Both the position numbers and the translations under genes were made by a program. 64,000 nt of DNA, taken from an uncultured Methanomassiliicoccales archaeon (GTDB lineage: Archaea; Thermoplasmatota; Thermoplasmata; RBG-16-68-12; JAJISG01). The notes under the pieces were generated by a model, which was not told where the DNA came from, searched no databases, and saw nothing but the letters and a program-made list of their open reading frames with translations. Positions 7,310 through 61,955 of this stretch are shown in pieces (position 1 is the stretch's first letter; every line of letters begins with the position of its first letter). The stretch spans positions 23,719-87,718 of the forward strand of contig CAYFYA010000008.1 in assembly GCA_964347325.1 (NCBI GenBank). The letters run 5' to 3'.

Positions 7310-7333
7310 GGGAAAAACGTTTGGGGGTGGTTA

Positions 7334-39940: not shown

Positions 39941-42286
39941 CTAGTGGACTTCTCCGTGACCGTACCTGTGGGGGTCTGCGTCGAAGGTCTCCTTGCAGTG
40001 GGCGCTGCAGAAGTAGAAGACCACGCCCGCGTGTTCTGAGCTACCGTAGGCCGTGTCGGGATTGACGTCCATTCCGCAAACTGGGTCCTTCGCCATGGTG
40101 GGCCTCCTTTCCTCCCACTTCGTGATGGTGGGTCGGAATCTCTTCAGCAATAAAGAGTTAGCTACAACCGTTGTAGAGGAGAACCCCATGGCGGCCCCGG
40201 CGAAGATAGGGTCCAGCAGCAGGCCAACGAGGGGGTATAGTATACCGGCCGCCACCGGGATGAGGGCCGTGTTGTAGGCGAAGGCCCAGAACAGGTTCTG
40301 TCGTATCTTGGAGTACGTCCTGCGGCTGAGTTGAATGGAGGCCACCACATCCCGGAGGTCGTCCTTCACCAGGACGATGCCGCCCGCCTCCCTGGCGACG
40401 TCTGTGCCGCTGCCGATGGCGATCCCCACATCCGCTTGAGCGAGGGCTGGGGCGTCGTTGATCCCGTCCCCCACCATGGCGACGGAGTGGCCCTTAGCCT
40501 GGAGCTCCTTGACCTTCTCCGCCTTGTCCCCCGGAAGCACCTCGGCCATGACCTCCTCGATGCCAACCTGAGCGGCGACGGCCATGGCCGTCCTCTCGTT
40601 GTCCCCTGTCAGCATAACGGGCCGGATGTTCATGGCCTTGAGCGCCTCCAACACTTCCTTGGCGTGCTCTTTGGGCGCGTCGGCTACGGCGAAGACGCCC
40701 GCCAGTTCATCGTCGACGGCCAAGAGCATGACGGTCTTGCCCTGCTGCTCGAGACCCTGCATCGTGCTCTCCATCTTGGAGAGTTCGACCCCGCTCTCCT
40801 GCATCAGCTTCCGGTTGCCGAGGAGGACTTTCCTGCTCTTCACCTTGGCCCTGACTCCGTGGCCCGGTACCGCCTTGAACTCCTCAGGGTCCACAGCCGC
40901 GATGCCGACCTCCTCCGCCTTTCGCAGTATCGCCTGGGCTAGGGGATGTTCAGAACCCTTCTCGGCCCCTGCGGCGAATCCGTAGACCTCCTCCACCGGA
41001 AGGCCCACGGGCACGACGTCAATCACCTCCGGCCTTCCCTTAGTGAGGGTTCCGGTCTTGTCGAAAATCACGATGTCTAGCTTGCGGGCCTTCTCCAGGT
41101 GCTCCCCTCCTTTGATGAGCAGGCCATTCTCGGCCCCCATGCCAGTGCCGACCATGATGGCGGCTGGGGTAGCGATTCCCAGGGCACATGGACAGGCGAT
41201 AATCAGGACGGCCACGAAGACCGTCAGACTGAATGTGAAGGAGGAGAGCTCGACAGGGGGAGTCCAGAGCCCGGTTCCTATGAAGTACCAGAACAGGGCG
41301 GCGATGATGGCAACGCTGATGACCGCCGGGACAAAGTAGCCCGCAACGACGTCTGCCAACCTCTGGATGGGGGCCCTGGACTCCTGGGCCTCCTCCACCA
41401 GGTGGATGATCTGGGCCAGCGTGGTGTCCTTCCCCACCTTGGTGGCCCTGAACTTCAGCATCCCGGTCTTGTTGATGGTGGCGCCGATGACCTCGTCCTC
41501 CAGCCCCTTCTCCACCGGAAGGGACTCGCCAGTAATCATAGACTCGTCCAGGGCTGACTGACCCTCCAGGATGACCCCATCCACGGGGACCTTCTCGCCC
41601 GGACGGACTACGACGATCTCACCCACCTCCACCTGCTCTACTGGGACCTCGACCTCCTCCCCATCACGGATGACTTTGGCCATCCTCGGGGCGAGGTCCA
41701 TCAGCCGGCGGATGGCCTCCGAGGCTCTCCCCTTGGCCTTCTCCTCGAAGAAGCGGCCCAGGAGGATGAGGGAAATGATGAAGGCCGCCGTGTCGAAGAA
41801 GACCGCCTCGCTGGCGAAGAAGGTCGGGAGGAATGTGACGACGGTGCTGTACCCGTAGGCGGCGCTGGTCCCCACGGCGATGAGGAGGTCCATGTTGGCG
41901 ACGCGATTCTTGAGGGCGTCCAAGGAACCGCGGTAGTATCGCCATCCTGCGACGAACTGCACGGGGGTGGCGAGGGCGAAGAGGACGAAGTTGCGGATGG
42001 CGGGCTCGAGGATGGGCAGTATGCTAAGGATGAGTATGGGTATCGAGAGGGAGAAGCTCAGGACGAGGAGCCGCTTGAGATGCCCGAGCTCCTTCGCCGG
42101 CTCCTTGAAGGTCAGCAGGCAGGTCTCGCTGCAGAAGAAGTAGTCTTTGCCATCCACAGTGGCCACTAGCTTGACCTTCGTCTCGTCCACGTACATGCCG
42201 CACACTGGGTCCTTCGCCAAGACTACCTCCTTGTGGAGAGAAGACCCGGTCGTACTTAAGCGGTGTCTACACGAGGCCTGGGCCAT
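39941..42286 (-). CDS. copA: Heavy-metal (Cu+) translocating P1B-type ATPase with N- and C-terminal TRASH/YHS metal-binding domains
   Basis: '[11 protein letters not shown]' (CPC), 'DKTGTLT', 'GDGINDAP'. N-terminal '[16 protein letters not shown]' and C-terminal '[16 protein letters not shown]'. Confidence 0.9.
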
Positions 42287-42374
42287 TGGCCGACCGTGAT
42301 GAGCCTAAGAGTAGAGCCGGAGGAAAAGGAGTCTCCTTGGCTAGAGTCCCTTGGATGATAATGGTTGAGGAAGG

Positions 42375-42382
42375 CTTAATAG
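42375..42382 (+). promoter_or_regulatory. Putative TATA box (CTTAATAG) about 34 bp upstream of the GTPase ATG; leaderless-type promoter
   Basis: Only AT-rich element upstream of 42412. Confidence 0.3.
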
Positions 42383-42411: not shown

Positions 42412-42966
42412 ATGGCTAAGAAGGCCGATAGGGCGAAACTCAAGATTTGCCTCGCCGGTGAGGCCGCCGTGGGGAAGACCTCCCTTATCCGTCGATTCGT
42501 CTACGACCAGTTCGACGAGAAGTACACCGTGACCCTGGGGGCCAAGGTGACTAAGAAGACGGTAACCTTCAAGGGCAAGAAGGGCGACCTCGAGGTGGAC
42601 CTAGCCATCTGGGACATCATGGGCGAGAAGTTCCTTCGAGAACTGCTCCGGGAAGCCTATTTCTACGGCGCCCAGGGAATCCTCGCGGTTTGCGACGTCA
42701 CGAGGGCGGAGACCCTTGTCGACTTAGAGGACTGGAAGACAGCGATTGAGAAGGTAGTCGGGAAGGTGCCAGTGATCGTCCTGGCCAACAAGTCCGACTT
42801 GGTGGACGAGACGGTCATCGACGAGAAAGGCCTCAAGCTCTTCTGCGAAGAGTGGCACTGTCCCTATCTCCTCACCAGCGCCAAGGAGGGGGACAACGTG
42901 GAGAAGGCCTTCCAGGATATTGCGGACACGGTGCTGGAAGGCATCACCGCCGAACGCATTGCCTGA
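42412..42966 (+). CDS. Ras-superfamily small GTPase (Rab/Ran-like)
   Basis: G1 'GEAAVGKTS', G2 Thr in 'YTVTLG', G3 'WDIMG', G4 'NKSD', G5 'TSAK'. 184 aa, with no lipidation motif. Confidence 0.8.
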   Translation: MAKKADRAKLKICLAGEAAVGKTSLIRRFVYDQFDEKYTVTLGAKVTKKTVTFKGKKGDLEVDLAIWDIMGEKFLRELLREAYFYGAQGILAVCDVTRAETLVDLEDWKTAIEKVVGKVPVIVLANKSDLVDETVIDEKGLKLFCEEWHCPYLLTSAKEGDNVEKAFQDIADTVLEGITAERIA

Positions 42967-43445
42967 GTGGCGAATCTACCACAGACCTGAACGAGCGGTT
43001 CCAGATCCGACTCATGGCGATTCCTGGATTGTGAACGGTGATTCAGAGAGCGGTGTCGGCCGCAGGCGATGTGGAACCGACACCTTTGATAACCATCCAC
43101 TCATCGATCAGCAGTGGTAAGCTGCTCGCGTGGTTAGGGGAGAATAACGCAGCCGATGATCTGGCCTCAGTATGATAGGGGGTCCGTTTCCAAGTTCTGG
43201 GAGATACTGGCCCTGGGATCCCCCAAGGGCGAGCGCTTGCCTCGATTCTCCCGGTAATGATGGTGTGATTAGTGGCGGGAAGTCAAGTGCCGTGTCATCC
43301 CCCATCTCTGCGTAAAAGATGTATCGAGTCTTCGATAGGGAGGCTACAATCCCGATTCCTCCGCTAATGAGGTGGTCGGTGGCCAAGGAGGTGACCGCGA
43401 GACTGACAGCCTCATGGTCTGGAAGCGTCTGAGGTAATCCTACCT

Positions 43446-49146: not shown

Positions 49147-49503
49147 CTTTCTGCCTCCTTGGCGATCCTTTCCGACCACCTAGGAGGAGGCAGGTGAGAG
49201 GGGGGTCATTGGCCTGCCGTAGTAGGTCCATAGTAACTACTATGGAGCGGTATCCGTTCCGCTTTGGCAGAAATACGGCAAGCCGATCGGAGAGGAGTCA
49301 CGCCTCGATGTTGCGGCAATCCGCAGCCTCACTAGGCAGTTCACTAACTCGTTGTCGCCCGACCGCAGCAGTAGACACCGTCGAAATGATGGGAGATCTC
49401 TCGGCGTACTCCAAAGGCCAGCCTACACCCAGAGAATGCAGTCAAAGCTGGCCGACGTAGGGCGTGCTAGGCACCAACCGTATCGCAAGGCTGCTTGCGA
49501 GCT

Positions 49504-49920
49504 CTATCTGGCTACCCTCGATGCACCAGAGGCGATGGCGAGGCCTCCACCCGCGAGGCCCGTTATGATGCTTAGTGCGTAGTCCGTCCCTCCAATCACA
49601 AAGGTCACAATGGAAAGGACGATAACGACGATTCCACCGATCCGCGCGGACCTGGGACTGATGAATGTAAGGATCGCCAAGACAAGAACCAGAACCCCGA
49701 CGCCCCGCAGGATGTTGACCAGAAGGTCCCAGATCGAAGCGTCCACGAATATGAACGGACCGAACTGCATCGCAGACCCAGCGTAAGGACCCTGCATGCC
49801 TGCTACCTGCATCGGCTCTTCACCGCTCAGTCCGATAGGATGTCCCATGCAACCCGCCGAGGTCCCCAGGTTAGAACCACCAGCTACTGTGTCCAATGCT
49901 CCAGCTACTTTATTGCTCAA
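49504..49920 (-). CDS. Hypothetical Gly-rich membrane protein (TTG start with a GGAGG RBS)
   Basis: Two or three TM segments. TATA-like 'GTATAAATAA' at 49955-49964 upstream. Confidence 0.45.
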   Translation of the reverse strand: MSNKVAGALDTVAGGSNLGTSAGCMGHPIGLSGEEPMQVAGMQGPYAGSAMQFGPFIFVDASIWDLLVNILRGVGVLVLVLAILTFISPRSARIGGIVVIVLSIVTFVIGGTDYALSIITGLAGGGLAIASGASRVAR

Positions 49921-50128
49921 TTAGCCTCCCCCGTGCCGATAGCCACCTCTATCGTATAAATAACTTTGTTAGCTTTCGCAGACTCCCTGCCCGACCGTCG
50001 AATTCCGTCTAGATGTCGACGTGGGCTGCGGCCGGAAGCCGTCTCCGGGCCTTGCCAACGGTTCCGAGAGCCTCCAGCCACAGGTGCAGGAGTCACGGTA
50101 TCTCCTGTGCCTGCGAACTGTTATCTAG

Positions 50129-52969
50129 ATGCATGACGGTCCAACAAGAGCGGGGGCCCTGGCAACGACCTTAGAAGCTCCAACTGTGAAGGACCGGATT
50201 TTGCTCCACCTCTTTGGCTATAGGCAACACGAGGAGGACTTCGCAGTCCCTCTGGTGATAACACAGGAAGGAATTGCCCGGGCGGTATGGATTGATGTCC
50301 GTCATGTGGTTCAGTACGTCCGTCCCCTCATGGAGGAAGAGTTCGTCCGGGAACGGATGGCACATATAGAGGGTGGGAGGAGAAGGCGCAAGGTCTACTG
50401 TCTCACGGACCGAGGGAAATCAAGAGCGCTGCAGCTCCAGAAGAGCCTAGCCTCCGAAACCGTGCGCGTTCGAGACGCTGAGGGTGTTCGTGAAGAGACG
50501 GTTGCGGAAGTTCTTCAGCGGCCTGGTGTAGAGACCTCGGTTCTGGAAGTCATACGCGAGTTCGTTCACTCAGGGGCAGTCGATGTTACGGCCCTCCAGG
50601 CTCCCTCCCCAGGTAGATACGTAGAGATGCTAGCTGACGCGCCGAAGGTCTCCGAGTTCCTCGGACGTGAGAGGGAACTTGAAACTCTCATGCGGGAAGG
50701 TGACGGGCCACGGATCTTCGTCATAAAGGGTGTGGCTGGGATCGGCAAGTCCACACTGGCAGCCAGGGTATGCGGGCTCCGAAGAAGCCGCCAGAATGTC
50801 TTTTGGCATAGAATCAGGTCGTGGGACACCCCCCACTCGATCCTCGCTGCCCTCGGCACCTTCCTCTCGGCCCTGGGAAGGCCCGGCCTGAAGACTGTCC
50901 TGGCGGAGGGTAGGCCCGAGATGGCTCCCGAGGTACTCAGAGAAGATCTTCCCGGCGTGAAGGCGGTGATAGTGATTGACGATGCCCACGACGCGAGTCG
51001 TGATGTGCTGGAATTCCTCCGCTTCCTGAAGGATGCGATTGCGGAGACCCCGGGGGTAACAGCACTGGTTATCACCCGACGGTCCCTTCCATTCTACGAC
51101 AGACGCGACGTGGTCCTCGACGAGATGGTTCAGGAGGTAGATCTAGAGGGTCTCGAGCCGGAGGTCGTCGAAGCAACAACCTCGGCTGAGGAGAGGGGTA
51201 GTCTGCCGATCGACCTGCTTCGTCACCCCCTCTTCCTGAAGCTAATGCGAGCCTCAACCGGAAGGAGAGCGCGTCGAGAGGCGCTAAGGGACTTCCACCG
51301 CTTCATCCAAGAGGCGATCTACTCGGAGTTGCCGGAGCCTGGGAGGAGGATGATGAAGATTGCCTCTCTATACCGAGTCCCAATCCCCCCAGAGGCCCTC
51401 CTCTTCGAGGCCACCTTGTCCCGCGACGTCATGCACGATCTGATGGAAAGAGCCCTTCTCACCGTAGTTGGCGAGGAGGACGTGGAAGTTCACGACACCA
51501 TTCGGGACTTCTTCGAGGCATTGCTCACGGAGGTCGAGAAGACGGAGTTCAGGGCCTTCGTAGTCCCACAGCTACGCGAACTAGCTTCCAAGGCTTGGGA
51601 CCAGGGAGATCTCTCCTACTGTATCAGCTGTCTCTCAAACGCCCTACACCTCTCCCCATCGGGATCGGAAGGATTAGCCGTCTATGAGGCCCTCGGCGAC
51701 GTCAAGGAGCGCATCGGTGACGTCGAAGGAGGCCTTGAGTCCTACAGGATGGCTATGGTTGCCGCCGGAGACCCTGAGTACTCGGCACGGCTCTACAGGA
51801 AGATAGGCACGGCTCTGGTCATTCGAGGAGAGATCCCTCCAGCCGCTAAGGCCGTGGAGGATGGATTCCAGGCCCTTGGACAAAGGGTCTGCGCAGAGCT
51901 CGGTTGGCTCAACCTGACCAGGTGTCGGGTCCTTGAGTGGCTTGAGCGCTGGGAGGAAGCCAAGGAGCACGGCATTGTCGCCTTGGAGACCTTCGAGGCC
52001 TTCGGAGAGCTCAGTGGCCAGGCCCAGGCCTATCTCCTGCTCGGACACATCGAAACGGGGATGCCTGGTGGGAGGCCCTCTCTGGCCCAAAGATACTTCA
52101 AGAGGGCGTTGGACCTGGCAGAAGCCCTTGGCGATGCTGCCGCCGTAGCGACGGTCCATCTGTTCCTCAGCAGTCTCTACGCCTTCCCCCTGGGAAATGT
52201 GGAGAAGGCAGAGGATCATCTGACGGCCGTCAGCCCCCTAGTCGACGACCTGGGAGACACCTTCAAGCGAATCAATTTCCTCTCGATGAAAGGGGCGTTC
52301 GACCTTCACATCAGGGCCGATTTCGAAGGGGCGGAGGCTCTCTTCGAGGAGGCAGCGTCGTTGGGCCGAAAACTCCGCAGCCCGGGTAGGGCAGCCTTCG
52401 CGGAATACCTACTCGGCTGGAGTAACTACTACCAGGGGAGGTTCGGCAAGGCGATGGATATGTTCAGGGAGTTCGCTGACGACATGCGAGAACGCGGTAT
52501 TCAACCGTCAGCAGTGGAGGCTCTGTGTATGGCCGCTGAGTGTGCTTTGCTTGAAGGTAACGTTGACGAGTTCCGTCGAATTCTGGTGGCCCTGAGGGAC
52601 CAGAGTCTCTCCCAAGGCGCTGAGGCTAGGCCGATGATGATGAAGGTGGTTGGTGCCATTGACCTGTTCCTCCGCGGCGACCTCGAAGCGTCCCGCACGT
52701 CCCTGGAGGAGGCAGTTGTGGCCGATGAGGGCGGGCTCGCATTTGACCCCGCTCTTCCCCACGTTGTGCACGCAGCCCTTTCACGGGCACTGGGGCGGGA
52801 GGAGGAGGCGACGGAGCACCTGAAAGCGGCGGCAAGCGCCTTCGAGGCCCTCTCCCGCACGGCCCATCTTAATCTCCTCGAAACCAGAGAGCAGTGTCTG
52901 GCTGAGACGCTCCACTCAACCGCAACTGGGTCCTCCGATCCGCCTACCCCAGCCGGTCGCGGCTCGTAG
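50129..52969 (+). CDS. STAND-class P-loop NTPase with an N-terminal PadR-like winged HTH and C-terminal TPR-like helical repeats
   Basis: wHTH 'RRKVYCLTDRGK'. Walker A 'IKGVAGIGKSTLAARV' and Walker B 'VIVIDDAHD'. Long alpha-helical repeat C-terminus. Confidence 0.75.
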   Translation: MHDGPTRAGALATTLEAPTVKDRILLHLFGYRQHEEDFAVPLVITQEGIARAVWIDVRHVVQYVRPLMEEEFVRERMAHIEGGRRRRKVYCLTDRGKSRALQLQKSLASETVRVRDAEGVREETVAEVLQRPGVETSVLEVIREFVHSGAVDVTALQAPSPGRYVEMLADAPKVSEFLGRERELETLMREGDGPRIFVIKGVAGIGKSTLAARVCGLRRSRQNVFWHRIRSWDTPHSILAALGTFLSALGRPGLKTVLAEGRPEMAPEVLREDLPGVKAVIVIDDAHDASRDVLEFLRFLKDAIAETPGVTALVITRRSLPFYDRRDVVLDEMVQEVDLEGLEPEVVEATTSAEERGSLPIDLLRHPLFLKLMRASTGRRARREALRDFHRFIQEAIYSELPEPGRRMMKIASLYRVPIPPEALLFEATLSRDVMHDLMERALLTVVGEEDVEVHDTIRDFFEALLTEVEKTEFRAFVVPQLRELASKAWDQGDLSYCISCLSNALHLSPSGSEGLAVYEALGDVKERIGDVEGGLESYRMAMVAAGDPEYSARLYRKIGTALVIRGEIPPAAKAVEDGFQALGQRVCAELGWLNLTRCRVLEWLERWEEAKEHGIVALETFEAFGELSGQAQAYLLLGHIETGMPGGRPSLAQRYFKRALDLAEALGDAAAVATVHLFLSSLYAFPLGNVEKAEDHLTAVSPLVDDLGDTFKRINFLSMKGAFDLHIRADFEGAEALFEEAASLGRKLRSPGRAAFAEYLLGWSNYYQGRFGKAMDMFREFADDMRERGIQPSAVEALCMAAECALLEGNVDEFRRILVALRDQSLSQGAEARPMMMKVVGAIDLFLRGDLEASRTSLEEAVVADEGGLAFDPALPHVVHAALSRALGREEEATEHLKAAASAFEALSRTAHLNLLETREQCLAETLHSTATGSSDPPTPAGRGS

Positions 52970-53381: not shown

Positions 53382-54656
53382 CTAGAGGAGGATTCTCCGC
53401 CGGCGGAGGAGGTGGTAAGCCACGGTCCCTCCCACCATCCCAATGACGTACCCGTACGGCAGCCCGATGATGATGGCACCCACGAGGAGGGCGATGGTTA
53501 GGTCCAGCTTGCTGTCCTTCACCTTAGCCACCAGCTTCACCAGGGCGAAGCCCTCAAAGACCAGAAGCACCCCGAGGATCGGGAAGGGGAAGACCTTCAC
53601 CACCTCGAAAATCACCCCACTGAAGAAGAGGCCGAGGACGAGGAAGATCGCACCGTAGATTACCACCGAACCGCCGGTCCGGGCGCCGAAGCGGTAGTGT
53701 CCGGCCATGCCGCCAGAGCCATGGCAGACGGGGACACCGCTGGCGAAGGGCGCTGCCAGGTTCATCAAGGAGTAGGTGAGTCCGATTCTGCGTGGCGTTA
53801 CGTCCACTCTCTGCGGGAAGTAGTCGCGGACGAGGTAGGCCGTGGCCACAATGGAGTTCGCTATGGAGAGCGGGATCTGGGGAAGGGCCAGCTGGATCCC
53901 ACCTTGGACGATGTCATTGATGGAAGGGACGTTGAACTTGGGCAGGGCGAATCCCACCCCGCCCAGGACGGCGCCGGAGTCGAATCCCTGGAACAAGGCG
54001 AGGCCGACTCCGGCGGCAATGAGTATGAGGGCAGGGGGGAATCTGCTCCCCCGTCCCAGGAAGAGCACCACGAGGATCCCGGCGAAGGCGACGACGTAGC
54101 CAATGATCGCCTCCCCCAGGGGAGCCCCGGGCTGCAGTATGAACCCGAAGGCGATGAGCATGAGCGTCAGGCCCAGGCCCAACTGGATGCCTCGGACGAC
54201 GCCTGGCGGGATGACCCTGTGAATCCAGTCGATGGAACGTGTCAGCACCAGGGCTAGCATCACCGCCCCGACCACGAGGCCGCCTCCGTAGAGCCAACTC
54301 GCCGAGGCGCCGGGGCCCAGTGCTATCATTATGGCGGCCATCGCCTTCAGGGGCTGCACGGGCATAGGGAGGCCATATCGGAGGGCCGTGAGGATCTGGA
54401 AGACACCGAACATCACAAAGGTGCTCGCCGCGTCCAAGCCGTTGATCGCCACCATCGCCAGGATGAGGGGCAGGTCCGTGCCGATATCGCCGAAGGCGCC
54501 GGCGATCTCTCCCCGGTTGAACAGGACCCGAGGTGCCTGGGGAGCCGCGGTCACGGGAGTCCACGATGGATTCCTCTCTAATAATATCGAGGTCCTCCTT
54601 GGGTCACGACTCGAGGACGGCCTTCCCACCAGTCTCCTTATGGGGAGCTTCCCCAC
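53382..54656 (-). CDS. MOT1-family (MFS-like) molybdate transporter with two internal repeats
   Basis: 'AGAFGDIGTDLPLILAM..GLPMPVQPLKAMAAI' closely matches the conserved MOT1 'GDLGTYIPI...PMPVQPMK' motifs. The start is uncertain. Confidence 0.6.
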   Translation of the reverse strand: MGKLPIRRLVGRPSSSRDPRRTSILLERNPSWTPVTAAPQAPRVLFNRGEIAGAFGDIGTDLPLILAMVAINGLDAASTFVMFGVFQILTALRYGLPMPVQPLKAMAAIMIALGPGASASWLYGGGLVVGAVMLALVLTRSIDWIHRVIPPGVVRGIQLGLGLTLMLIAFGFILQPGAPLGEAIIGYVVAFAGILVVLFLGRGSRFPPALILIAAGVGLALFQGFDSGAVLGGVGFALPKFNVPSINDIVQGGIQLALPQIPLSIANSIVATAYLVRDYFPQRVDVTPRRIGLTYSLMNLAAPFASGVPVCHGSGGMAGHYRFGARTGGSVVIYGAIFLVLGLFFSGVIFEVVKVFPFPILGVLLVFEGFALVKLVAKVKDSKLDLTIALLVGAIIIGLPYGYVIGMVGGTVAYHLLRRRRILL

Positions 54657-54976
54657 TTCGACGGGTAGCCGACGATGGCAACCGAGGTGTTAGTCGCCGT
54701 CATAACCGTATTCGATGCTCCACGAAACACCTTGCTAGCCCTTCCGCCCAATACCACCAAGCCAGCCTGGTCAAGGTGTTCCACATCGCAGCTCGCACGT
54801 CGAAATGTCGAAACCTAAACGGCGGTGGGGCCGGTGTCGAACAGGGTGACCTCGTGGTCGTGACCATGACTTCCTTAGCACGACCCACGTGGCCCACTTG
54901 GAGACCACCTTGGTCCTGCCTCATGCACGCCCTGTGACGGCGCTCTGGGGGAGTTCGATGCAATCCAGAGGTGGGC

Positions 54977-56392
54977 CTACTGAGTTGGTGTCAAAACACG
55001 GCAGTCGGAGCAATAGCGGTTGAGCACTGGAATCAGCGAGGTATACTCCTCTCCTAGAAGCTCGCCGACCCTCTCCAGCATTGCCTGGGGTGCTATCGGA
55101 GCCCCACATCTCTCACACGTGGGCGTGGCATCGCGATGGAGGGCGATTCTGCCTTGGTTCAATCGGCCGAGGTCCACAGTCTTGACGAGTCGAATCGCGC
55201 CGCGATGTCTCTCCGGGCACGGTGGGATACAGATACCGCAGGCCACGCACTTCATGGCATCGAACGTCAGGAAGACTCCTTCCACCTCGCTCCCATAGAC
55301 CAGGGCGTCTGTGGGACAGGCTTCTGCGCACATGCCACAAGTTGTGCAAGCCTCCCCGATTTCCACCACTCCCAGGGGCGATCGCTCGTGGGCGACGGTG
55401 ACTTCCTCCCCGCCGAACAGGTGCGCCAAAACCCTCAGGATTTCCGGAATCGCTTCATGACCAAAGGGCCGATCCAAAGATACCGGGGTCACGCCACGCG
55501 GCGGGTCCTGACTCAGGTCTGGGCCCAACAATACGAGATCCTCCGGGGCCCCGAGACTGGCGAGGAAATCCCGACAGAAGGCCACAGTCTCGGCGATCTT
55601 GTCCGCCTGACCTGCGGGGCACTCGATGGGACATCCCTGAATACCGACCGTACCCGCCCCCATCAGGAGAGGAGCGAGCATCCAACCCGGCGTCGCCATG
55701 CCCGCGCAAGGGAGTCTGAGCGGCATCCATCCCTCTGCGCCCTGCGGTGCGGGAGAGTGTGCACAATGGTACACGATGCCACGAGGCCCGTTCTCTCCAG
55801 AGATGAGGGCACCTACCTGTGCCTCCAACTGTGCGGGCGTGGTCGTGGGGTCGTGAACGGCTCCACACGGACAAGCAGTAACGCAGATACCGCAGGGTTC
55901 ACAGGTCGACTTGTCGAATCGAATCCGCCCCTCGGACCACTTGAGGGCACCCTGGGGACACACCTGGGTGCATACATTGCATCCGCCGCCGGCCGCACAA
56001 GCGGTACGGTCTACGGACGGGACTGCCCGATATTCGGTCCACCTGAGTCCGAACAAGGACCTCCTGCCGATCCTGGAGGATCTGTAAATCTTGGAGTGTT
56101 CAGGGCGGCTGCCGGCGAAGGCCCTCGCCCTCGCCACGGCGGCTGCCAAGAGGACCTTGCCCCTTTCCGGGGTGGCCTCCCCCAGGTGAACGATCTCTAC
56201 CCCCAGGGGATCGAGACCCGCCTTTCTGACCTCCGGCTGCAGTTCCGCCAGTGAGTAGTTCTTCGAGCAGAGGCCAAGGACCAGACGATCGACTTCCTTG
56301 CCGGCAAGGAGCTCGCTGGCTGTCCCCAAACGTTCGCATAGGTTCGGCACAACCTGGACTTCTGTGTGGCTCTCGCCTCCCCACTCAAGCAC
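54977..56392 (-). CDS. Iron-sulfur protein with multiple 4Fe-4S ferredoxin motifs and MvhD-like domain(s)
   Basis: Ferredoxin motifs 'CTTCGMCAEACP', 'CVACGICIPPCP', 'CEPCGICVTACP' and 'CNVCTQVCP'. MvhD-like 'VYHCAHSP...RLPCAGMATPGWMLAPLLMGAGTVGIQGCPIECPAG'. Confidence 0.65.
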   Translation of the reverse strand: MLEWGGESHTEVQVVPNLCERLGTASELLAGKEVDRLVLGLCSKNYSLAELQPEVRKAGLDPLGVEIVHLGEATPERGKVLLAAAVARARAFAGSRPEHSKIYRSSRIGRRSLFGLRWTEYRAVPSVDRTACAAGGGCNVCTQVCPQGALKWSEGRIRFDKSTCEPCGICVTACPCGAVHDPTTTPAQLEAQVGALISGENGPRGIVYHCAHSPAPQGAEGWMPLRLPCAGMATPGWMLAPLLMGAGTVGIQGCPIECPAGQADKIAETVAFCRDFLASLGAPEDLVLLGPDLSQDPPRGVTPVSLDRPFGHEAIPEILRVLAHLFGGEEVTVAHERSPLGVVEIGEACTTCGMCAEACPTDALVYGSEVEGVFLTFDAMKCVACGICIPPCPERHRGAIRLVKTVDLGRLNQGRIALHRDATPTCERCGAPIAPQAMLERVGELLGEEYTSLIPVLNRYCSDCRVLTPTQ

Positions 56393-56414
56393 ACGAGAGC
56401 TGCTCTCGCTCTCC

Positions 56415-57128
56415 TCACAGAGAAGTACGGTCGTCTCGATGTTCGTAGTCAGCCTCCTTGATTAGGAAGCTCAAGTAGTCCTGGTCGTGCCCTATGAAGG
56501 CGTCGGCGGTCTTGACGATTGCCCTGTAGAACGGTTCCTTCGTGGCATTCACGACGATCTCCGCGAACCTGGAGAACCAGGTGCCAAGGTGTTGCTCCAA
56601 GAAAACGAGCTCCTCTTTCACAGTCTCCTGGGCCTTTCCGAGGCCGCCATCCTTCCAGGCTTCCGCCTCCCTCTCGCAGAGGAAGGCCATCGCATCCATT
56701 TCGATGGACACGTGATCGGGCAGACCCTTGTAATCGGTGGGCAGGTCGAGACCCATCCTGGCATACTCTCCATCCAGCTGGGTGATTATAGCTGTTCGTA
56801 GGCCGGGCGGGGCACGGTAATATGACTCGTGGGGATGACAGATAGGACCCCGCGGACCCACGGAGAAGAGCCTCACATGCTCTTGCTGGATTTTCTTGGC
56901 GCTGTTCAGGCCCTGAAACGCTTCTCTTAGCGCTGCCCAGCTCGGATAGAATGCGAAGTCAGCCAAGTGGCGATCATCGAGGCGTTGCAGGGCGTCCTCA
57001 AGCAAAGCTACACGCTTCCCCTCAGGGTAGAGGAGGCTAGTCGCGAGGAAACGGTAGAGTCCGTGGCGGAGCTGCGCTAGCGCTCCCCCATCCAGCTCAT
57101 TCTCCAGAACTTTCCGGTAGGATTTCAT
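56415..57128 (-). CDS. TorD/DmsD/NarJ-family molybdoenzyme maturation chaperone
   Basis: All-helical 237-aa protein with a TorD-like N-terminus 'LAQLRHGLYRFLATSLLYP'. Located inside the molybdoenzyme operon. Confidence 0.6.
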   Translation of the reverse strand: MKSYRKVLENELDGGALAQLRHGLYRFLATSLLYPEGKRVALLEDALQRLDDRHLADFAFYPSWAALREAFQGLNSAKKIQQEHVRLFSVGPRGPICHPHESYYRAPPGLRTAIITQLDGEYARMGLDLPTDYKGLPDHVSIEMDAMAFLCEREAEAWKDGGLGKAQETVKEELVFLEQHLGTWFSRFAEIVVNATKEPFYRAIVKTADAFIGHDQDYLSFLIKEADYEHRDDRTSL

Positions 57129-57315
57129 AGACCACCGCTGACAGGAACATGACTAGGAAGCCGAGGATGAAAATACCTGGAGCGAACGGAACGATTGGGT
57201 TGCTATGATCGACGTTGCTTGGGGGGAAGCCCCAAGGGGCTGCGAAGTAGAAATAGCTCACGATCATGAGCGCTGCACCGACAACGATGAGGAGAGCAGT
57301 GAGGAGTCTACGCAT
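57097..57315 (-). CDS. Small 2-TM membrane protein with a conserved 'PWGFPPS' motif (72 aa from 'MRRLL', preceded by a GGTGA RBS)
   Basis: Overlaps both the NrfD gene and the TorD gene. A paralog lies at 62697-62912. Confidence 0.5.
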   Translation of the reverse strand: MRRLLTALLIVVGAALMIVSYFYFAAPWGFPPSNVDHSNPIVPFAPGIFILGFLVMFLSAVVYEILPESSGE

Positions 57316-58627
57316 CTGTACTATCACCTCCATCTGACATGGTTGTTCTTTCTTCTGGCAAGGGCATAATCGGGAAGAGCTTCATGAAGAGGCCGATGAG
57401 GAGGGCTCCGAAGGCGAAGAGACCGACAATGATCCCGTATTCCACCCAGGTGGGCGTGTATACGCCTATCTGGTACGGGAGAAGGCTCCCGTGAGTGAGC
57501 GAGGGTACGACAACGATGTACCGTTTGGCGATGGCGGCGACGTTGACCATCAGTCCGATCGCCACGAGCACGGGGATGCTCCATCGGCCAGTCAGGGCAA
57601 GAGTGACGATTAGGAAGAGCGGAATGACCAAGAATGCGACGGAGAGCCAGTAGACCCCCGCATACTCGCCGAAGAGGAGAGCGTTCACCAGAAGTGTTTC
57701 TTGAGCGTGCCCTTGGTAGGTCGCCGTAAGGAGCTCGACGAGCATGAAGTACAGATAGACCGCGATGAGGACCATCAGGTACTTTCCGAGGGATTTGAAT
57801 ACGTCGCCATTGATGTTTCTCTTCTCGCCCATGGACCAGCGCGCGATGGCAATAAGAACGATGAGTGCCCCGAGCCCGGAGATTCCCGCCAACACCACGA
57901 ACGCAGGAGCCTGCAGGGCGCTGTACCAACCTGGTCGTCCCGCCTGAAGCCCGAAGACGAGGCCCAGCGTAGAGTGGGCGGCCACCAGAATGGGGATGAT
58001 GGCCACGGCGAGCCAGAAGCTGACCCGACGATGTCGCTTCTGCTCTTCGGGAGTATCGCGATATCCAGCCGCCAAGAAGCGATGGAGTCTTTGCAGACGA
58101 CCTGGTGTCTTCGCGAGAACGGCGGCATCCTTCCTGCTGTCAAGGTAGAGGTAAGTCAGGCTTGCCAGAAGGTAGCCGGCGATGACTAGAACGAAGGTCC
58201 CGAAGAAGGGGGACTGCGGGCGAGCGTATGTGAAGAGGTTGACGATCCCGACGAGAGGGCGACCAAGATCGGGTATCACGGCAAAGGTGGCGAGGATTAG
58301 AGCAACGACAGTCAGCACTTCCGCGATCCGGGCCACTGGGCGAAGATGCTTCAGATCGAGTAGCCTGATCATGGCTGCCATCGTGATGCCCGCGAAGCTG
58401 ATCCCGACGAAGTAGATGTCGAAGGATATGTAGAGGCCCCATGGGGAACCTCCCATCGTTCCTGTGTCCCTCAGACCAGTGACGACTAATCCGAAATTGA
58501 CCTGGACCAACCAGGCAATGAAACCGAACAGGGCAACCGCGGCGGAGACCAACATGAAGATGATCCAACGCCAGGTGAGCCTGCCGACGCCGTACGGCAA
58601 ACGTGCCACAGCAACTTCAGCCGTCAT
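57308..58627 (-). CDS. NrfD/PsrC-family polysulfide-reductase-type membrane anchor subunit
   Basis: Eight to ten TM helices. Its start codon overlaps the stop of the upstream FeS-subunit gene (ATGA at 58624-58627). Confidence 0.8.
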   Translation of the reverse strand: MTAEVAVARLPYGVGRLTWRWIIFMLVSAAVALFGFIAWLVQVNFGLVVTGLRDTGTMGGSPWGLYISFDIYFVGISFAGITMAAMIRLLDLKHLRPVARIAEVLTVVALILATFAVIPDLGRPLVGIVNLFTYARPQSPFFGTFVLVIAGYLLASLTYLYLDSRKDAAVLAKTPGRLQRLHRFLAAGYRDTPEEQKRHRRVSFWLAVAIIPILVAAHSTLGLVFGLQAGRPGWYSALQAPAFVVLAGISGLGALIVLIAIARWSMGEKRNINGDVFKSLGKYLMVLIAVYLYFMLVELLTATYQGHAQETLLVNALLFGEYAGVYWLSVAFLVIPLFLIVTLALTGRWSIPVLVAIGLMVNVAAIAKRYIVVVPSLTHGSLLPYQIGVYTPTWVEYGIIVGLFAFGALLIGLFMKLFPIMPLPEERTTMSDGGDSTDA

Positions 58628-59367
58628 AGTGTGACCTCCTCTTTCACCCTTTCAATCTGTCTCATCTCGATATTAGGCGGAGACCCCGCGAGGTAGAAGA
58701 CGCTGGGATCAGTACCCACCTCCTCCAGCAGCTGGAAGTGCGGCTTCTCCACGAGCAACCTGGACACCTCGCTGTCCGGATCTTCGGCGTCTCCGAAGTG
58801 GAGGACGTGGGTTGGACAGGTCTCCACGCAGGCGGGCAACAGTCCCTTCTCGACCCGTTGCACGCAGAAGGTGCACTTCTCGATGACACCCTTGTAGTGG
58901 CCGCCACCCGCGATGCGCCGCTGCTCCGGGCCGAACGCAGTGTCCAGATCGGGATTCTTGTAAGGGGGGACCGCGCCCTCGCTGACTCCCGCCAGATCGG
59001 GATCGTCCCATGCCAAGTAGTAACTCCTCACAGGCTCCTTCCAGTTGAAGTAGTTCACGCCGTAGGGACAGGCCACCTCACAGTACCGGCAGCCAATGCA
59101 GCGGTCCCAGTCCGTGGCCACGAGCCCGTCGATTCGCTTGTAGCGGGCCCCGACGGGACACACCTTCACACAGGGCGCGTTATCGCAGTGCTGACAAGGC
59201 CTGGGGAAGAACGAGATGCGCGTGTCTGGATAGGTCCCCTCCTCAAGGCGCCACACGTACATCCAGAAGTTCGCCTGGGGGGTGTTGTTCTCCACCTTGC
59301 ACGCTTCCATACAGGCGCGGCAACCGGTACATCGATCGAGGTCGATCGTCATGACGTACTTGGCCAT
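58624..59367 (-). CDS. 4Fe-4S ferredoxin-type electron-transfer subunit (PsrB/DmsB-like)
   Basis: 'CTGCRACMEACK', 'CQHCDNAPCVKVCP', 'CIGCRYCEVACP' and 'CTFCVQRV'. Confidence 0.9.
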   Translation of the reverse strand: MAKYVMTIDLDRCTGCRACMEACKVENNTPQANFWMYVWRLEEGTYPDTRISFFPRPCQHCDNAPCVKVCPVGARYKRIDGLVATDWDRCIGCRYCEVACPYGVNYFNWKEPVRSYYLAWDDPDLAGVSEGAVPPYKNPDLDTAFGPEQRRIAGGGHYKGVIEKCTFCVQRVEKGLLPACVETCPTHVLHFGDAEDPDSEVSRLLVEKPHFQLLEEVGTDPSVFYLAGSPPNIEMRQIERVKEEVTL

Positions 59368-61955
59368 CAGTCCTCACCCCCTGCCTTGGAGACCTGAACC
59401 TTCACGTGATATGACTGATCCGCCGTGTTGGAGACGTAGCCCTCGCCGGTGAAGAAGAGCTCGTTGGGTGAGGGACCCTGCCCGTCGTTCGTGGGGTTCC
59501 TCCACATTCCGAAGTGGTGGGGCATGCCCACAGTGTCCGGTCGAATGCTTTCAACGAGGGTCGCTCGCACCTTCGCCCTCCTCGTTTCCCCCGTCACAGC
59601 GTTCTGGGCTTCGACCCAAACCAGGTCCCCTTCGCGGATGCCCCGCGCCCGGGCGGCCTCCGGATTCATGTCGAGCCGCTGCTCCGGGGTCAGTTCCGCC
59701 AGAAGCGGGATGAAGCTGGTCCGGGACTGCTTGTGCTCGATGAGCTTGTAGCTGATCAGGTAGAGGTCGTAGGCCGACGGGGACCCCTCCATCGTGGGAT
59801 CTCGCCACACGGGGAACGGCGTGTAGTCCTGCCAGTAGATCTGCTCCACGCCCTTCGCCTTCATCTCATTCTGGTACCGCAGCAGGCTCTCCCCGTAGAG
59901 GCGGTGCAGGGCGCCCCCGAAGGGCGGGCCGGCGGCGTAGCCGTATCGCGCCGAGGGGGACAGGGGCCCCTTGATCCACACGCCGTTGTTCTCGAAGAAT
60001 TCGATTCCACCGCTCAAGCCTTCCATCAAGGACCATTGATGGAAGATGTCGCGGACGGAAGGCTTCGTGTCGAGGTCGAGGAGATACGGATCTTCGAGCC
60101 CTACCGCAGCATTGATCCGATCGATGTAGCCTCCGACTCCATAGAGGACACCCATCTTCTCGGCGAGATCCAGATAGATGTCGATCTCCCCCCGCGATTC
60201 GAAGAGGGGATCCATCGGCGGGAGACGAAGCGTCTTGGCGTCGATGTACTGGTCCGATACGGAGCTGACGCCCTCGTACTTCTCGATGGTCGCCGCTGGC
60301 AGCACGACATCGGCGAAGTAGTCTGCGGTCTCTGACAGCCACGGATTGATGTCGACGACGAAGTTGAGCTTCTTGTACGCGTCAATGAAGTCCTTCTGAG
60401 AGAGGAAGGAGGTGAGGGGATTGGCCATGTGCAGAATCATCACTTCCGGCAGGTCGTCTACCCCGTACTTGGCGGGATCGAGCATGACCTTGGCCGCGAC
60501 GCCAGGGAGGGCCGAGTTGATCGGGTAGAACTTGCTATTCTTGAGGTAGAAGTTGTACGGGGGGTCCCCAATCGTAATCTCATCTAGGCCCGCATAATTG
60601 CTGTGAATCTTCCAGGTGAAGTCAATCATGGTGCCCCCTACCGCTCCCATGGCTCCGAGGAGCATTTCGACGAGGATCATGGCCCGAAGCGCCTGGAATC
60701 CGAGCTCTTGCTGCGCCATGTGATAGGCCATGATGGCGACGGGTCGGTAGGGGATGTCCTCCCCCTCCAGGTTAATCGTGCTGCCGATTAGGGCGTTCTC
60801 GCCCATTTCGAGGGCCACTTGTCTGATTTGCGCCGCCGCGACGTCGCAGACTCCCTCCGCCCATTCGGGGGTGTACGAGGCCACGTGCTCTGTGAAGAGC
60901 TGGAAGGCGGGCTTAACAGTCTCGGCGCCGACCGTGTACTCACCCTCTAGGGCGGGCACAGCGGCCGGGTCATCATGGTCCATTGGAGCTGAGGTCACCG
61001 TGTCCCAGACCTGCTCCTTGTCGCCAACCCGATAGAAGGAGCCGTCCTCCCCCACCAGGAAGGGCGCGTTAGTGTAGGTCGAGAGGTAGTCCGTGTCCAC
61101 ATACCCGTTCGCAATCAGCACGTTGCAGAGAGCCAGGGCCAGCGCCATGTCAGTCCCGGGTTTGATGGGAAGCCAGACGTCCGCAAAGTGGCCGGCACTC
61201 CGGAGTCGCGGGTCGATATGAACCACCTTGATGCCCCGCTCCCGGGCCTCCATGAGTTGCTGAGGCCAGGTGATCCAGCAGAACTTGTTTCCGCCCGCAT
61301 TGGTGATGTTCCATCCCCAGGAGAGGAGGTAGCGGGTATACTTGAAATCGGGATGGAGCACCCCATGCGGTCCAATGGTGTACTCCGCCGCTCGATAGCC
61401 GGCGTCGGAACAGTAGCCGCCGTGGCCTAGCTTGCTGGCGCCTATCGCCCCGACAAAGGCCGTATCGTAGAAGGCACCGGCCTTGCTCCTTCCTTTCTGC
61501 CAGAGTACGAGACTCGGGTCGCGATCCCTTACCGTGTTGACTTGCTGCGCCACGAGGTCGAGGGCTTCGTCCCAGGAGGCTTCCCGCCATTGGCCGGTGA
61601 CGCCTTTCTCGTTCGTCCGGATGAGAGGGGTCTTGACCCGGTTAGGGTCATAGAACGCCATAATCTGTGCCTGGCCCTTGGGACAGAGGGTGCCGAGGTT
61701 CCTCGGATGGTCTGGGTGACCCGCAAGGGACACCACCCTGCCGTTGAGTCTCCGGGCGATCATGCCGCATTCCTGCTTCCCTATCCAGCAAGTTGTGGGG
61801 ACGAAATCCTCGGTCGCAGGGGCGGCATCCTTGGGGGTGGTGGGTCTCAGAATCGAGGGAATGCCCAGGTTCCAAGGCGAGACTTGGGTTGCGATCGCGG
61901 CGCCCGCGGCGGTGGCTCCACTCAGCTTCAGGAACGTTCTTCTCGAATGTTTCAC
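59367..61955 (-). CDS. Molybdopterin (bis-MGD) oxidoreductase catalytic subunit with a Tat signal; Psr/Phs/Ttr/Arr clade
   Basis: Tat motif 'SRRTFLKLSGATAAGAAIA'. FS0 region 'CWIGKQECGM...GRVVSLAGHPDHPRNLGTLCPKG'. 862 aa. Confidence 0.9.
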   Translation of the reverse strand: MKHSRRTFLKLSGATAAGAAIATQVSPWNLGIPSILRPTTPKDAAPATEDFVPTTCWIGKQECGMIARRLNGRVVSLAGHPDHPRNLGTLCPKGQAQIMAFYDPNRVKTPLIRTNEKGVTGQWREASWDEALDLVAQQVNTVRDRDPSLVLWQKGRSKAGAFYDTAFVGAIGASKLGHGGYCSDAGYRAAEYTIGPHGVLHPDFKYTRYLLSWGWNITNAGGNKFCWITWPQQLMEARERGIKVVHIDPRLRSAGHFADVWLPIKPGTDMALALALCNVLIANGYVDTDYLSTYTNAPFLVGEDGSFYRVGDKEQVWDTVTSAPMDHDDPAAVPALEGEYTVGAETVKPAFQLFTEHVASYTPEWAEGVCDVAAAQIRQVALEMGENALIGSTINLEGEDIPYRPVAIMAYHMAQQELGFQALRAMILVEMLLGAMGAVGGTMIDFTWKIHSNYAGLDEITIGDPPYNFYLKNSKFYPINSALPGVAAKVMLDPAKYGVDDLPEVMILHMANPLTSFLSQKDFIDAYKKLNFVVDINPWLSETADYFADVVLPAATIEKYEGVSSVSDQYIDAKTLRLPPMDPLFESRGEIDIYLDLAEKMGVLYGVGGYIDRINAAVGLEDPYLLDLDTKPSVRDIFHQWSLMEGLSGGIEFFENNGVWIKGPLSPSARYGYAAGPPFGGALHRLYGESLLRYQNEMKAKGVEQIYWQDYTPFPVWRDPTMEGSPSAYDLYLISYKLIEHKQSRTSFIPLLAELTPEQRLDMNPEAARARGIREGDLVWVEAQNAVTGETRRAKVRATLVESIRPDTVGMPHHFGMWRNPTNDGQGPSPNELFFTGEGYVSNTADQSYHVKVQVSKAGGED

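Follow-up and report, generated by a model that had tools for sequence, protein, structure and literature searches.

Small GTPases of prokaryotes

In 2015 Wuichet and Sogaard-Andersen defined the Rup family, Ras superfamily GTPases of unknown function in prokaryotes (PMC4316618), and in 2016 Rab-like genes were reported from a Thermoplasmatales archaeon and from Aciduliprofundum (PMC4915359). A gene of this general kind lies in the 64,000-nucleotide stretch analysed here, which is part of contig CAYFYA010000008.1 of an uncultured Methanomassiliicoccales archaeon and is called the window below. An earlier note on this DNA had described the gene as a stand-alone Ras/Rab-like small GTPase of a prokaryote, probably a non-Asgard archaeon. 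We consider it likely that the product is a cytosolic, single-domain switch, predicted to depend on guanine nucleotides, and a member of a clade, confined to Thermoplasmata, within the Ras-like (Ras/Rab/Rho/Ran, 'Rup'-type) branch of the small GTPases.

The window GTPase resembles the Rup proteins in being prokaryotic, in its length (150-240 residues in Rup), in its eukaryote-like G1 to G5 boxes and in being uncoupled from MglB (PMC4316618). Group 1 Rup proteins also lack the Gln of G3, but their conserved four-gene neighbourhood (PMC4316618) is absent at the window locus. Like the window family, the archaeal group 2 Rup genes have undergone heavy duplication, and a single genome may hold as many as six of them; however, group 2 is found only in Crenarchaeota and is linked to Arf/Sar (PMC4316618), whereas the window family is specific to Thermoplasmata and falls with Ras/Rab/Rho/Ran. 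A second likeness is to the archaeal 'Rab-like' GTPases of Surkont and Pereira-Leal, which are single-domain proteins most similar to Rab from non-Asgard hosts of Euryarchaeota grade, and which share with the window family a short C-terminus without a prenylation Cys (PMC4915359). That study found one copy per species on long, divergent branches, whereas the window family is multi-copy and forms tandem arrays; the RabF motifs are fully conserved in its mostly Lokiarchaeal consensus, but are matched at only about 40% of positions in the window GTPase. The likeness to its Thermoplasmatales gene is one of description, and the position of the archaeal Rab-like GTPases within the Ras superfamily was left unresolved there (PMC4915359).

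Among proteins of known structure, the closest are a Thorarchaeota Rab (PDB 7ezb/7ezd/7eze) and the eukaryotic Rab1, Rab7 and Rab8 (121.8 bits, template-modelling (TM) score about 0.72-0.78, 28-34% identity). These have the same order of secondary-structure elements and the same G boxes as the window GTPase, but they carry the catalytic Gln (DTAGQ / DLAGQ) where the window GTPase has Glu72, and the eukaryotic Rabs have RabF motifs and prenylated tails that the window GTPase matches poorly or lacks. MglA of Myxococcus and Thermus, the best-known prokaryotic switch of the Ras superfamily, is far more distant. It lacks the G3 Asp, has an insertion between G1 and G2 and is coupled to MglB (PMC4316618), and none of this applies to the window GTPase. 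The papers on Asgard GTPases that were consulted make no mention of Thermoplasmata.

A multi-copy family of Thermoplasmata

The closest homologs of the window GTPase, at up to 89% identity (the nearest at 88-89%), all come from uncultured Thermoplasmata metagenome-assembled genomes (MAGs); an exact-sequence lookup of the protein returned no identical record. In a scan with one genome per GTDB species, at least 546 loci encoded relatives, and the best 80 of these loci were all in MAGs of Thermoplasmata, Thermoplasmatota or 'Methanomassiliicoccales'. A non-Asgard archaeal host is thus borne out. The 86 family loci fetched from related genomes held 183 family genes, with 2-4 tandem copies in 50 of the loci, and these loci alone gave 1-7 copies per assembly across 55 assemblies. 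For this lineage, the supposed rarity of such genes outside Asgard archaea does not stand against these numbers: the family is ubiquitous and multi-copy in Thermoplasmata, NCBI already names many close homologs 'Rab family GTPase' or 'GTP-binding protein', and Rab-like genes of Thermoplasmatales and Aciduliprofundum had been reported in 2016 (PMC4915359). The window gene is an ordinary member of this large family, is already annotated in relatives and was foreshadowed by the surveys of 2015 (PMC4316618) and 2016 (PMC4915359).

An exhaustive HMMER search gave 257 clusters (50% identity) at E<=1e-30 and 11,329 at E<=1e-10. Its top match was a multi-Rab gene model from the eukaryote Solemya velum, whose score is summed over repeats and is therefore uninformative on the nearest outgroups. 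The same search brought up multidomain or multi-GTPase proteins of 762 aa (P0123), 698 aa (P0140) and 1706 aa (P0192, with six matched stretches), which carry one to six G domains 30-50% identical to the window GTPase.

G boxes, domain and fold

The open reading frame (ORF) begins with ATG, encodes 184 residues and has exactly the boundaries first described. All five G boxes named in the earlier note are found in its translation and are invariant in an alignment of 27 family members, except that the position after DxxG, where Gln was to be expected, is Glu72 (Table 1). The alignment contains 57 invariant columns. In G1 the invariant residues are G16, E17, A19, V20, G21, K22 and T23, the motif as a whole resembling GESAVGKS of Rab5; in switch I they are Y38, T41, G43, A44 and K45. 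The nucleotide- and Mg-binding apparatus (P-loop Lys/Thr, switch-I Thr, DxxG, NKxD and SAK) is complete and strongly conserved, and is under strong purifying selection. Glu72 (42625-42627) occupies the catalytic Gln position (Ras Q61) of Ras, Rab, Rho and Ran and is retained in at least 90% of the close family members in this alignment; the match to the eukaryote-type G3 is therefore incomplete.

The Pfam Ras model (PF00071) matched residues 11-175 with E=6.8e-35 and 120.5 bits against a cutoff of 21.6, and TIGR00231 (small_GTP) matched with E=4e-20 and 72.2 bits against 42.5. Because the G domain covers residues 11-175, there is no extra domain, as had been claimed for this 184-aa protein. 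The Pfam models Roc (93 bits), Arf (42.5 bits) and Gtr1/RagA gave weaker, overlapping matches. An identity as a ROCO protein, which the Roc match might suggest, was rejected: the protein ends at residue 184 without a COR or other domain.

The best 60 sequence matches in the PDB were all Rabs (Rab1B at 1e-25, Sec4, Rab18, Rab28 and the Thorarchaeota Rab among them), and a profile of the 27 family members placed the Thorarchaeota Rab 7ezb at the top with its 121.8 bits, narrowly above Rab1. In pairwise BLASTP comparisons the order was Rab1A (97 bits, 34% identity), Rab7A, Rab5A, RalA, Rab11A, Ran, Rap1A, Rheb, RhoA and H-Ras, followed at a distance by Arf1 (40 bits) and MglA (29 bits). An AlphaFold2 model built from the family alignment had a mean predicted local distance difference test score (pLDDT) of 81.6 and the order b1-a1-b2-b3-a2-b4-a3-b5-a4-b6-a5, with six strands and five helices. 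Foldseek found 1380 matches to this model in the PDB at E<=1e-3; the top ones were all Rabs, with Rab1, Rab8, Rab27, Rab35 and the Thorarchaeota Rab at TM 0.71-0.78. The gene encodes a canonical single-domain G domain of the Ras superfamily, with a match far beyond chance, and its predicted fold is Rab-like.

Phylogenetic position

Trees were computed from 181 family genes together with human H-Ras, Rap1A, RalA, Rheb, Rab1A, Rab5A, Rab7A, Rab11A, Ran, RhoA, Rac1 and Cdc42. Further references were Arf1, Sar1A, two MglA sequences and the Thorarchaeota Rab, whose sequence was taken from the PDB profile match. The Thermoplasmata family was monophyletic in 198 of 200 and in 489 of 500 (98%) bootstrap replicates. 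It fell inside the group of Ras, Rab, Rho and Ran (with the Thorarchaeota Rab), apart from Arf, Sar and MglA, in 135 of 200 and in 432 of 500 replicates (86%). The sequence trees thus place the family inside the Ras/Rab/Rho/Ran branch, and not specifically with Rab. An Arf/Sar identity is contradicted by the grouping with these proteins in only 11 of 500 replicates, by the Pfam Arf score of 42.5 bits against 120.5 for Ras, and by a G3 that reads DIMGE.

With all five G boxes, Pfam and TIGR scores above their cutoffs and a canonical small-G fold, the protein belongs to the Ras superfamily; the Gln after DxxG that it lacks is typical of the superfamily but not obligatory. It also agrees with the description of Rup in being a prokaryotic single-domain protein of 150-240 aa with the G3 Asp (D68) and no MglB neighbour. 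By this description the window gene qualifies as a Rup-type GTPase of the Ras superfamily. The earlier assignment to the Ras/Rab-like single-domain GTPases, as opposed to MglA, Arf, Era or Obg, is upheld by these results.

Glu72 and the proposed switch

The residue equivalent to Ras Q61 varies within the family: among 181 genes it is Glu in 107, Gln in 50, Ser in 20, Asn in 2, Ala in 1 and Asp in 1. It segregates by orthogroup, being a near-invariant Glu in the orthogroup of the window gene and Ser in a separate singleton group. In Ras itself, the Q61E substitution increases the intrinsic GTPase activity, which becomes faster than that of the wild type (PMC2987813). We propose that the window GTPase would cycle between GTP- and GDP-bound conformations of switch I and switch II and would signal by binding effectors. 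Hydrolysis would most likely be intrinsic, with Glu72 positioning or activating the attacking water, and the protein would be a self-timing switch that dispenses with the Gln-dependent mechanism assisted by a GTPase-activating protein (GAP). Such a switch is favoured by the near-invariant Glu, by the faster hydrolysis of Ras Q61E and by the lack of a linked GAP-like partner; that no Roadblock gene is linked to the locus fits it as well.

The protein ends in ...EGITAERIA and has no terminal Cys, and no Cys occurs among the last six residues in 178 of 180 family genes. There is likewise no hypervariable or polybasic tail and no Arf-type amphipathic helix. Since a lipid-anchor Cys, a polybasic tail and an amphipathic helix are all missing, any membrane association would have to come about via partners; judging from these features, the window GTPase is probably soluble unless so recruited.

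Several points weigh against the assignment of the gene as a Ras-like switch. Of the reference sequences in the trees, only MglA was verified against the PDB (100% identical to 3T12); the trees are distance trees built by neighbor joining, with 200 and 500 bootstrap replicates and a reference set without bacterial Rup; and the deep branches of small-GTPase trees are notoriously unstable (PMC4915359). In the AlphaFold2 model, P-loop residues 18-21 have a pLDDT below 50, as expected without ligand. We infer nucleotide binding, hydrolysis and the role of Glu72. The paralogs differ at the Ras-Q61 position (Glu, Gln, Ser), so the mechanism may differ between them, and Glu72 could point instead to an unlinked GAP that provides the catalytic residue in trans, as has been proposed for group 1 Rup (PMC4316618).

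This last point leads to an alternative that we regard as unlikely but worth weighing, a GAP-dependent or non-hydrolysing switch, in which an unlinked GAP supplies the catalytic residue in trans, in the manner of Rap and RapGAP or of group 1 Rup, or in which the protein is a pseudo-GTPase scaffold. The replacement of Gln by Glu in 107 of 181 family genes and by Ser in 20 can be read in this way, and Rap1 has Thr at the Ras-Q61 position. Group 1 Rup proteins lack the G3 Gln, and a Gln acting in trans has been proposed for them (PMC4316618). However, Ras with Glu at this position is faster than the wild type, not dead (PMC2987813), and no conserved neighbour of the window gene could be the GAP. 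The strong conservation of the other catalytic and binding residues argues against a pseudo-enzyme. Of the alternatives to the self-timing switch, which we favour, an unlinked GAP acting in trans is the main one.

Gene order and putative promoter

The orthogroup of the window gene comprises nine loci among those fetched (L001-L003 and L008-L013; 65-89% identity) and is separate from the array paralogs described below in the family tree. A divergent copA gene lies upstream in every ortholog locus long enough to judge, and all ortholog loci have a convergent ATP-binding cassette (ABC) transporter of amino-acid type downstream (permease, ATPase, permease, SBP_bac_3). This position between copA and the ABC genes is kept in at least seven Thermoplasmata assemblies, down to 65% identity. 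In the window, too, the GTPase gene stands, as first described, between a divergent copA and a stretch (479 bp) without a convincing gene. Within about 10 kb are also found glycosylation genes, a radical-SAM gene, a STAND gene with AAA_16 and TPR domains and a molybdoenzyme cluster. Genes of the Roadblock/MglB, longin, TBC or DENN type are absent within about 10 kb on either side, no GDI-like (guanine nucleotide dissociation inhibitor) gene was found near the window GTPase, and precomputed Pfam matches revealed no Roadblock/MglB gene near the GTPase in syntenic relatives. The statement that no gene for a guanine nucleotide exchange factor or Roadblock protein is a neighbour is upheld within these 10 kb, where no GAP gene lies either. 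A role in a defence system was rejected: PADLOC gave only a weak P-loop match of the GTPase to PtuA (20.8 bits), and left the radical-SAM gene, the STAND-TPR gene and the small neighbours unmatched.

The claim that the gene has a TATA-like element of its own is strengthened by comparison with the orthologs. TTAATA at 42376-42381, about 31-36 nt before the ATG, lies within a GAAGGCTTAATAG block that is kept in the eight ortholog upstream regions aligned, while its flanks have diverged. These eight regions are diverged except for this block and a second element, TGATAATG, always with 6 nt between the two and with the pair ending some 30 nt ahead of the ATG. The composite motif TGATAATG-N6-GAAGGCTTAATA occurs once in the window, with 0 expected, and among the 86 family loci it is found only in the nine ortholog loci. 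The GAAGGCTTAATAG block would be a B recognition element (BRE) followed by a TATA box, which would imply a very short leader. TGATAATG is a candidate regulator-binding site, and its conservation upstream of the BRE/TATA block suggests that transcription is regulated by a dedicated factor.

Some close relatives carry a further gene between copA and that of the GTPase, for a polytopic membrane protein (182-208 aa) that has a His-rich GPDHWLPH motif and matches no Pfam model. Its product is probably a transporter of metals, made from the same transcript as copA. A tblastn search did not find it in the window, nor is it among the called genes of L008. As a partner of the GTPase it was rejected, being a His-rich polytopic membrane protein encoded on the copA strand and missing from the window and from the called genes of L008.

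The constancy of the neighbourhood raises the question whether the GTPase is functionally tied to the ABC transporter beside it or to the homeostasis of copper or other metals, which we judge improbable. The order copA / GTPase / ABC, found wherever an ortholog locus is long enough to show it, the shared divergent intergenic region and the insertion of the His-rich membrane protein in some relatives would all agree with such a tie. Yet both neighbours are on the opposite strand, so the GTPase is in no operon with copA or the ABC genes, and the promoter block keeps a constant distance from the GTPase gene but not from the divergent one, be it copA or the inserted His-rich gene. Moreover, the surrounding 15 kb are colinear as a whole, including the radical-SAM, STAND-TPR and glycosyltransferase genes; the adjacency of copA and the ABC genes may therefore reflect no more than the synteny to be expected of rather closely related genomes. 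Elsewhere, the paralogs have quite different neighbours.

Relation to Rab

A true Rab would be an orthologue-grade relative of the eukaryotic and Asgard Rabs, serving membrane identity or trafficking and controlled by Rab-type regulators. We think this very improbable for the window gene, even though Rabs, that of Thorarchaeota among them, head its matches both in the PDB and by fold, relatives bear the NCBI name 'Rab family GTPase', and the smallest tree distances from the family are to Rab7, the Thorarchaeota Rab and Rab1. The family grouped with eukaryotic Rabs in only 6 of 200 replicates, with the Thorarchaeota Rab in 49 of 500 and with the Thorarchaeota Rab plus eukaryotic Rabs in 15 of 500, negatives that are weak in a neighbor-joining tree. 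The RabF1 to RabF5 consensus, reportedly set out by Pereira-Leal and Seabra in 2000, is said to read IGVDF, KLQIW, RFRSIT, YYRGA and LVYDIT. Aligned through Rab1B and scored against this consensus, the window GTPase matches 11 of 27 positions (LGAKV, 1/5; DLAIW, 3/5; KFLREL, 1/6; YFYGA, 3/5; AVCDVT, 3/6), so that RabF1 is matched at one position only. The protein thus matches the RabF motifs poorly and lacks a prenylatable C-terminal Cys (as do 178 of 180 family genes) and a hypervariable tail, the neighbor-joining tree does not nest it within the Rabs, and no TBC, DENN, longin or GDI-like gene is nearby. The name Rab in its strict sense is not supported for a protein with 11 of 27 RabF positions, no prenylation Cys and no specific affinity to Rab in the tree.

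Codon usage and inheritance

It had been suggested that codon usage and GC content be examined for signs of horizontal acquisition. The window GTPase has a GC content at third codon positions (GC3) of 0.82, where 42 proxy genes of the window have 0.77+-0.06, and its codon-adaptation index against these genes ranks 32 of 42; the composition is native. Given this native codon usage and the orthologs at the same position, there is no sign of recent acquisition. A recent transfer from a eukaryote, an Asgard archaeon or a bacterium thus has hardly anything to commend it beyond the isolation of the gene on its strand, its own promoter and the odd 479-bp stretch of lower GC content next to it. The gene equals or surpasses the norm of the window in GC3 and codon usage, orthologs as distant as 65% identity keep the same copA / GTPase / ABC position in at least seven Thermoplasmata assemblies, the family forms one clade that extends across the lineage, and the 479-bp stretch matches nothing mobile. 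No closer homolog (>60% identity) was found outside Thermoplasmata, nor a sister genome lacking the gene at this position. The gene confirms that Ras-like GTPases with near-complete eukaryote-type G boxes belong to the regular, vertically inherited gene stock of Thermoplasmata; finding such genes outside Asgard archaea should therefore in itself be taken neither as unusual nor as evidence of gene transfer.

The placements that the earlier note had opposed to its own, as a polarity or motility GTPase of MglA type or as a ribosome-associated GTPase of the Era/Obg/Eng type, are effectively refuted: there are weak Pfam and NCBIfam side matches to MMR_HSR1, RsgA, Era, EngA and EngB, but the Era, EngA, EngB, YqeH and RsgA models of NCBIfam score about 15-25 bits against cutoffs of 100-326 (Era, EngA and EngB alone 18-22 against 164-307) and no extra domain is present, while MglA itself reaches 29 bits at 21% identity against 97 bits for Rab1A, grouped with the family in 0 of 200 and 0 of 500 replicates, and lacks the G3 Asp that is kept here, with no MglB/Roadblock gene nearby.

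Paralog arrays upstream of LonB

In 37 of the 86 family loci, same-strand tandem arrays of paralogs, mostly of 3-4 copies, lie directly upstream of a gene for a 661-aa LonB protease (Table 1). The arrays often adjoin the ribosomal-protein/SecY cluster. Their positions form separate orthogroups, of which the two proximal to LonB carry Glu and the distal one Gln at the Ras-Q61 position. Assembly CAYFYB01 holds both a copA-side ortholog 80% identical to the window gene (L002) and a LonB array (L020); the genome of the window probably has an array elsewhere too. A literature search found no description of LonB-linked small-GTPase arrays in archaea.

These observations lead us to a tentative proposal, which we hold to be possible though by no means probable: Thermoplasmata may have their own lineage-specific radiation of Ras-like GTPases, independent of the expansion in Asgard archaea and eukaryotes. 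It would comprise at least 4-7 paralogs per genome in fixed orthogroups, with a diversified Q61 residue (Glu, Gln, Ser) and, at its core, the array of 3-4 paralogs upstream of a membrane-bound LonB; the window gene would be the separately regulated copA-side member of a network not described as such. If this is true, multi-paralog Ras-like signalling evolved in a non-Asgard archaeon. The window gene alone adds little, and the LonB arrays are the more interesting observation. The gene does offer an entry point to a large, multi-copy family whose paralogs differ in the catalytic residue and of which several are arrayed upstream of LonB, and the family could serve as a tractable non-Asgard system in which to ask how small-GTPase switches come to differ between paralogs, and what was under their control prior to eukaryogenesis or apart from it.

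Table 1. Positions of the features discussed, in window coordinates unless a locus is named.
Feature	Coordinates	Strand	Remarks
copA (P-type ATPase with YHS domains)	39941-42286	-	upstream of the GTPase gene, divergent
Conserved upstream element TGATAATG	42356..42363	+	at a constant 6 nt ahead of the BRE/TATA block
Putative BRE plus TATA box, GAAGGC-TTAATA-G	42370..42382	+	30-42 nt upstream of the ATG
Small GTPase gene	42412..42966	+	single Ras-superfamily G domain; copA-side orthogroup of the Thermoplasmata Ras-like family
G1 / P-loop, GEAAVGKT, residues 16-23	42457..42480	+	translated sequence and family alignment
Switch I / G2, YTVTLGAK	42523..42546	+	Mg-coordinating Thr41; aligns to Rab1 YISTIGVD
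G3 / start of switch II, WDIMGEK	42610..42630	+	DIMG is residues 68-71; aligns to Rab1 WDTAGQE
G4, NKSD, residues 126-129	42787..42798	+	guanine specificity; N126, K127, D129 invariant in 27 members
G5, SAK, residues 156-158	42877..42885	+	T155, S156, A157, K158 invariant in 27 members
479-bp stretch, no convincing gene	42967..43445		between the convergent ends of the GTPase and ABC permease genes
His-rich polytopic membrane protein of relatives	L001 7121-7669	-	copA strand
His-rich polytopic membrane protein of relatives	L002 7228-7854	-	copA strand
His-rich polytopic membrane protein of relatives	L003 6481-7107	-	copA strand
LonB arrays	L004 7370-11932; L005 5702-9690; L006 6367-10943		and 34 further loci (L014-L073)

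Other features of the window

The 479-bp stretch downstream of the GTPase gene has a GC content of 0.557, which is lower, and the orthologous loci have 4-175 bp in its place. It is peculiar to this genome and is not part of the GTPase unit in relatives. It showed no similarity to the relatives or to the rest of the window, no excess of RNA structure (z=-0.63), no terminal repeats or mobile-element ends and no plasmid similarity. No Rfam family was found in it even at a permissive threshold, the only match being a spurious microRNA inside coding sequence, and a scan for sigma-70-type promoters and intrinsic terminators, by a tool ill-suited to archaea, was negative. A 92-aa ORF on its minus strand (43108-43386) has no Pfam match. 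The 64-kb window as a whole contains no tRNA or Rfam genes.

Two sizeable ORFs of the window, at 6644-7747 (+; 367 aa) and 14210-16267 (+; 685 aa), match no Pfam model at E<=1e-5. In the first of these, the GC content at first codon positions is unusually high (0.85) and GC3 (0.65) is lower than in any other member of the set, so that it may not be a real gene.

Further downstream, at 50129-52969 (+), is a gene for a STAND-type NTPase of 946 aa (AAA_16/AAA_22/NACHT-like) with C-terminal TPR repeats. It is preceded by an 897-bp gene-poor stretch (49232-50128) with no convincing ORF, and it is syntenic with genes of 912-916 aa in L001 and L008; NB-ARC/TPR proteins are also encoded near a family GTPase in L007. 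A respiratory-type molybdoenzyme cluster occupies 53382-61955 (-) and encodes an MFS_MOT1 molybdate transporter, a 4Fe-4S protein, a TorD/NarJ-like chaperone, an NrfD membrane subunit, a 4Fe-4S subunit and an 862-aa molybdopterin oxidoreductase. This cluster suggests an anaerobically respiring rather than methanogenic lifestyle of this Thermoplasmata lineage.

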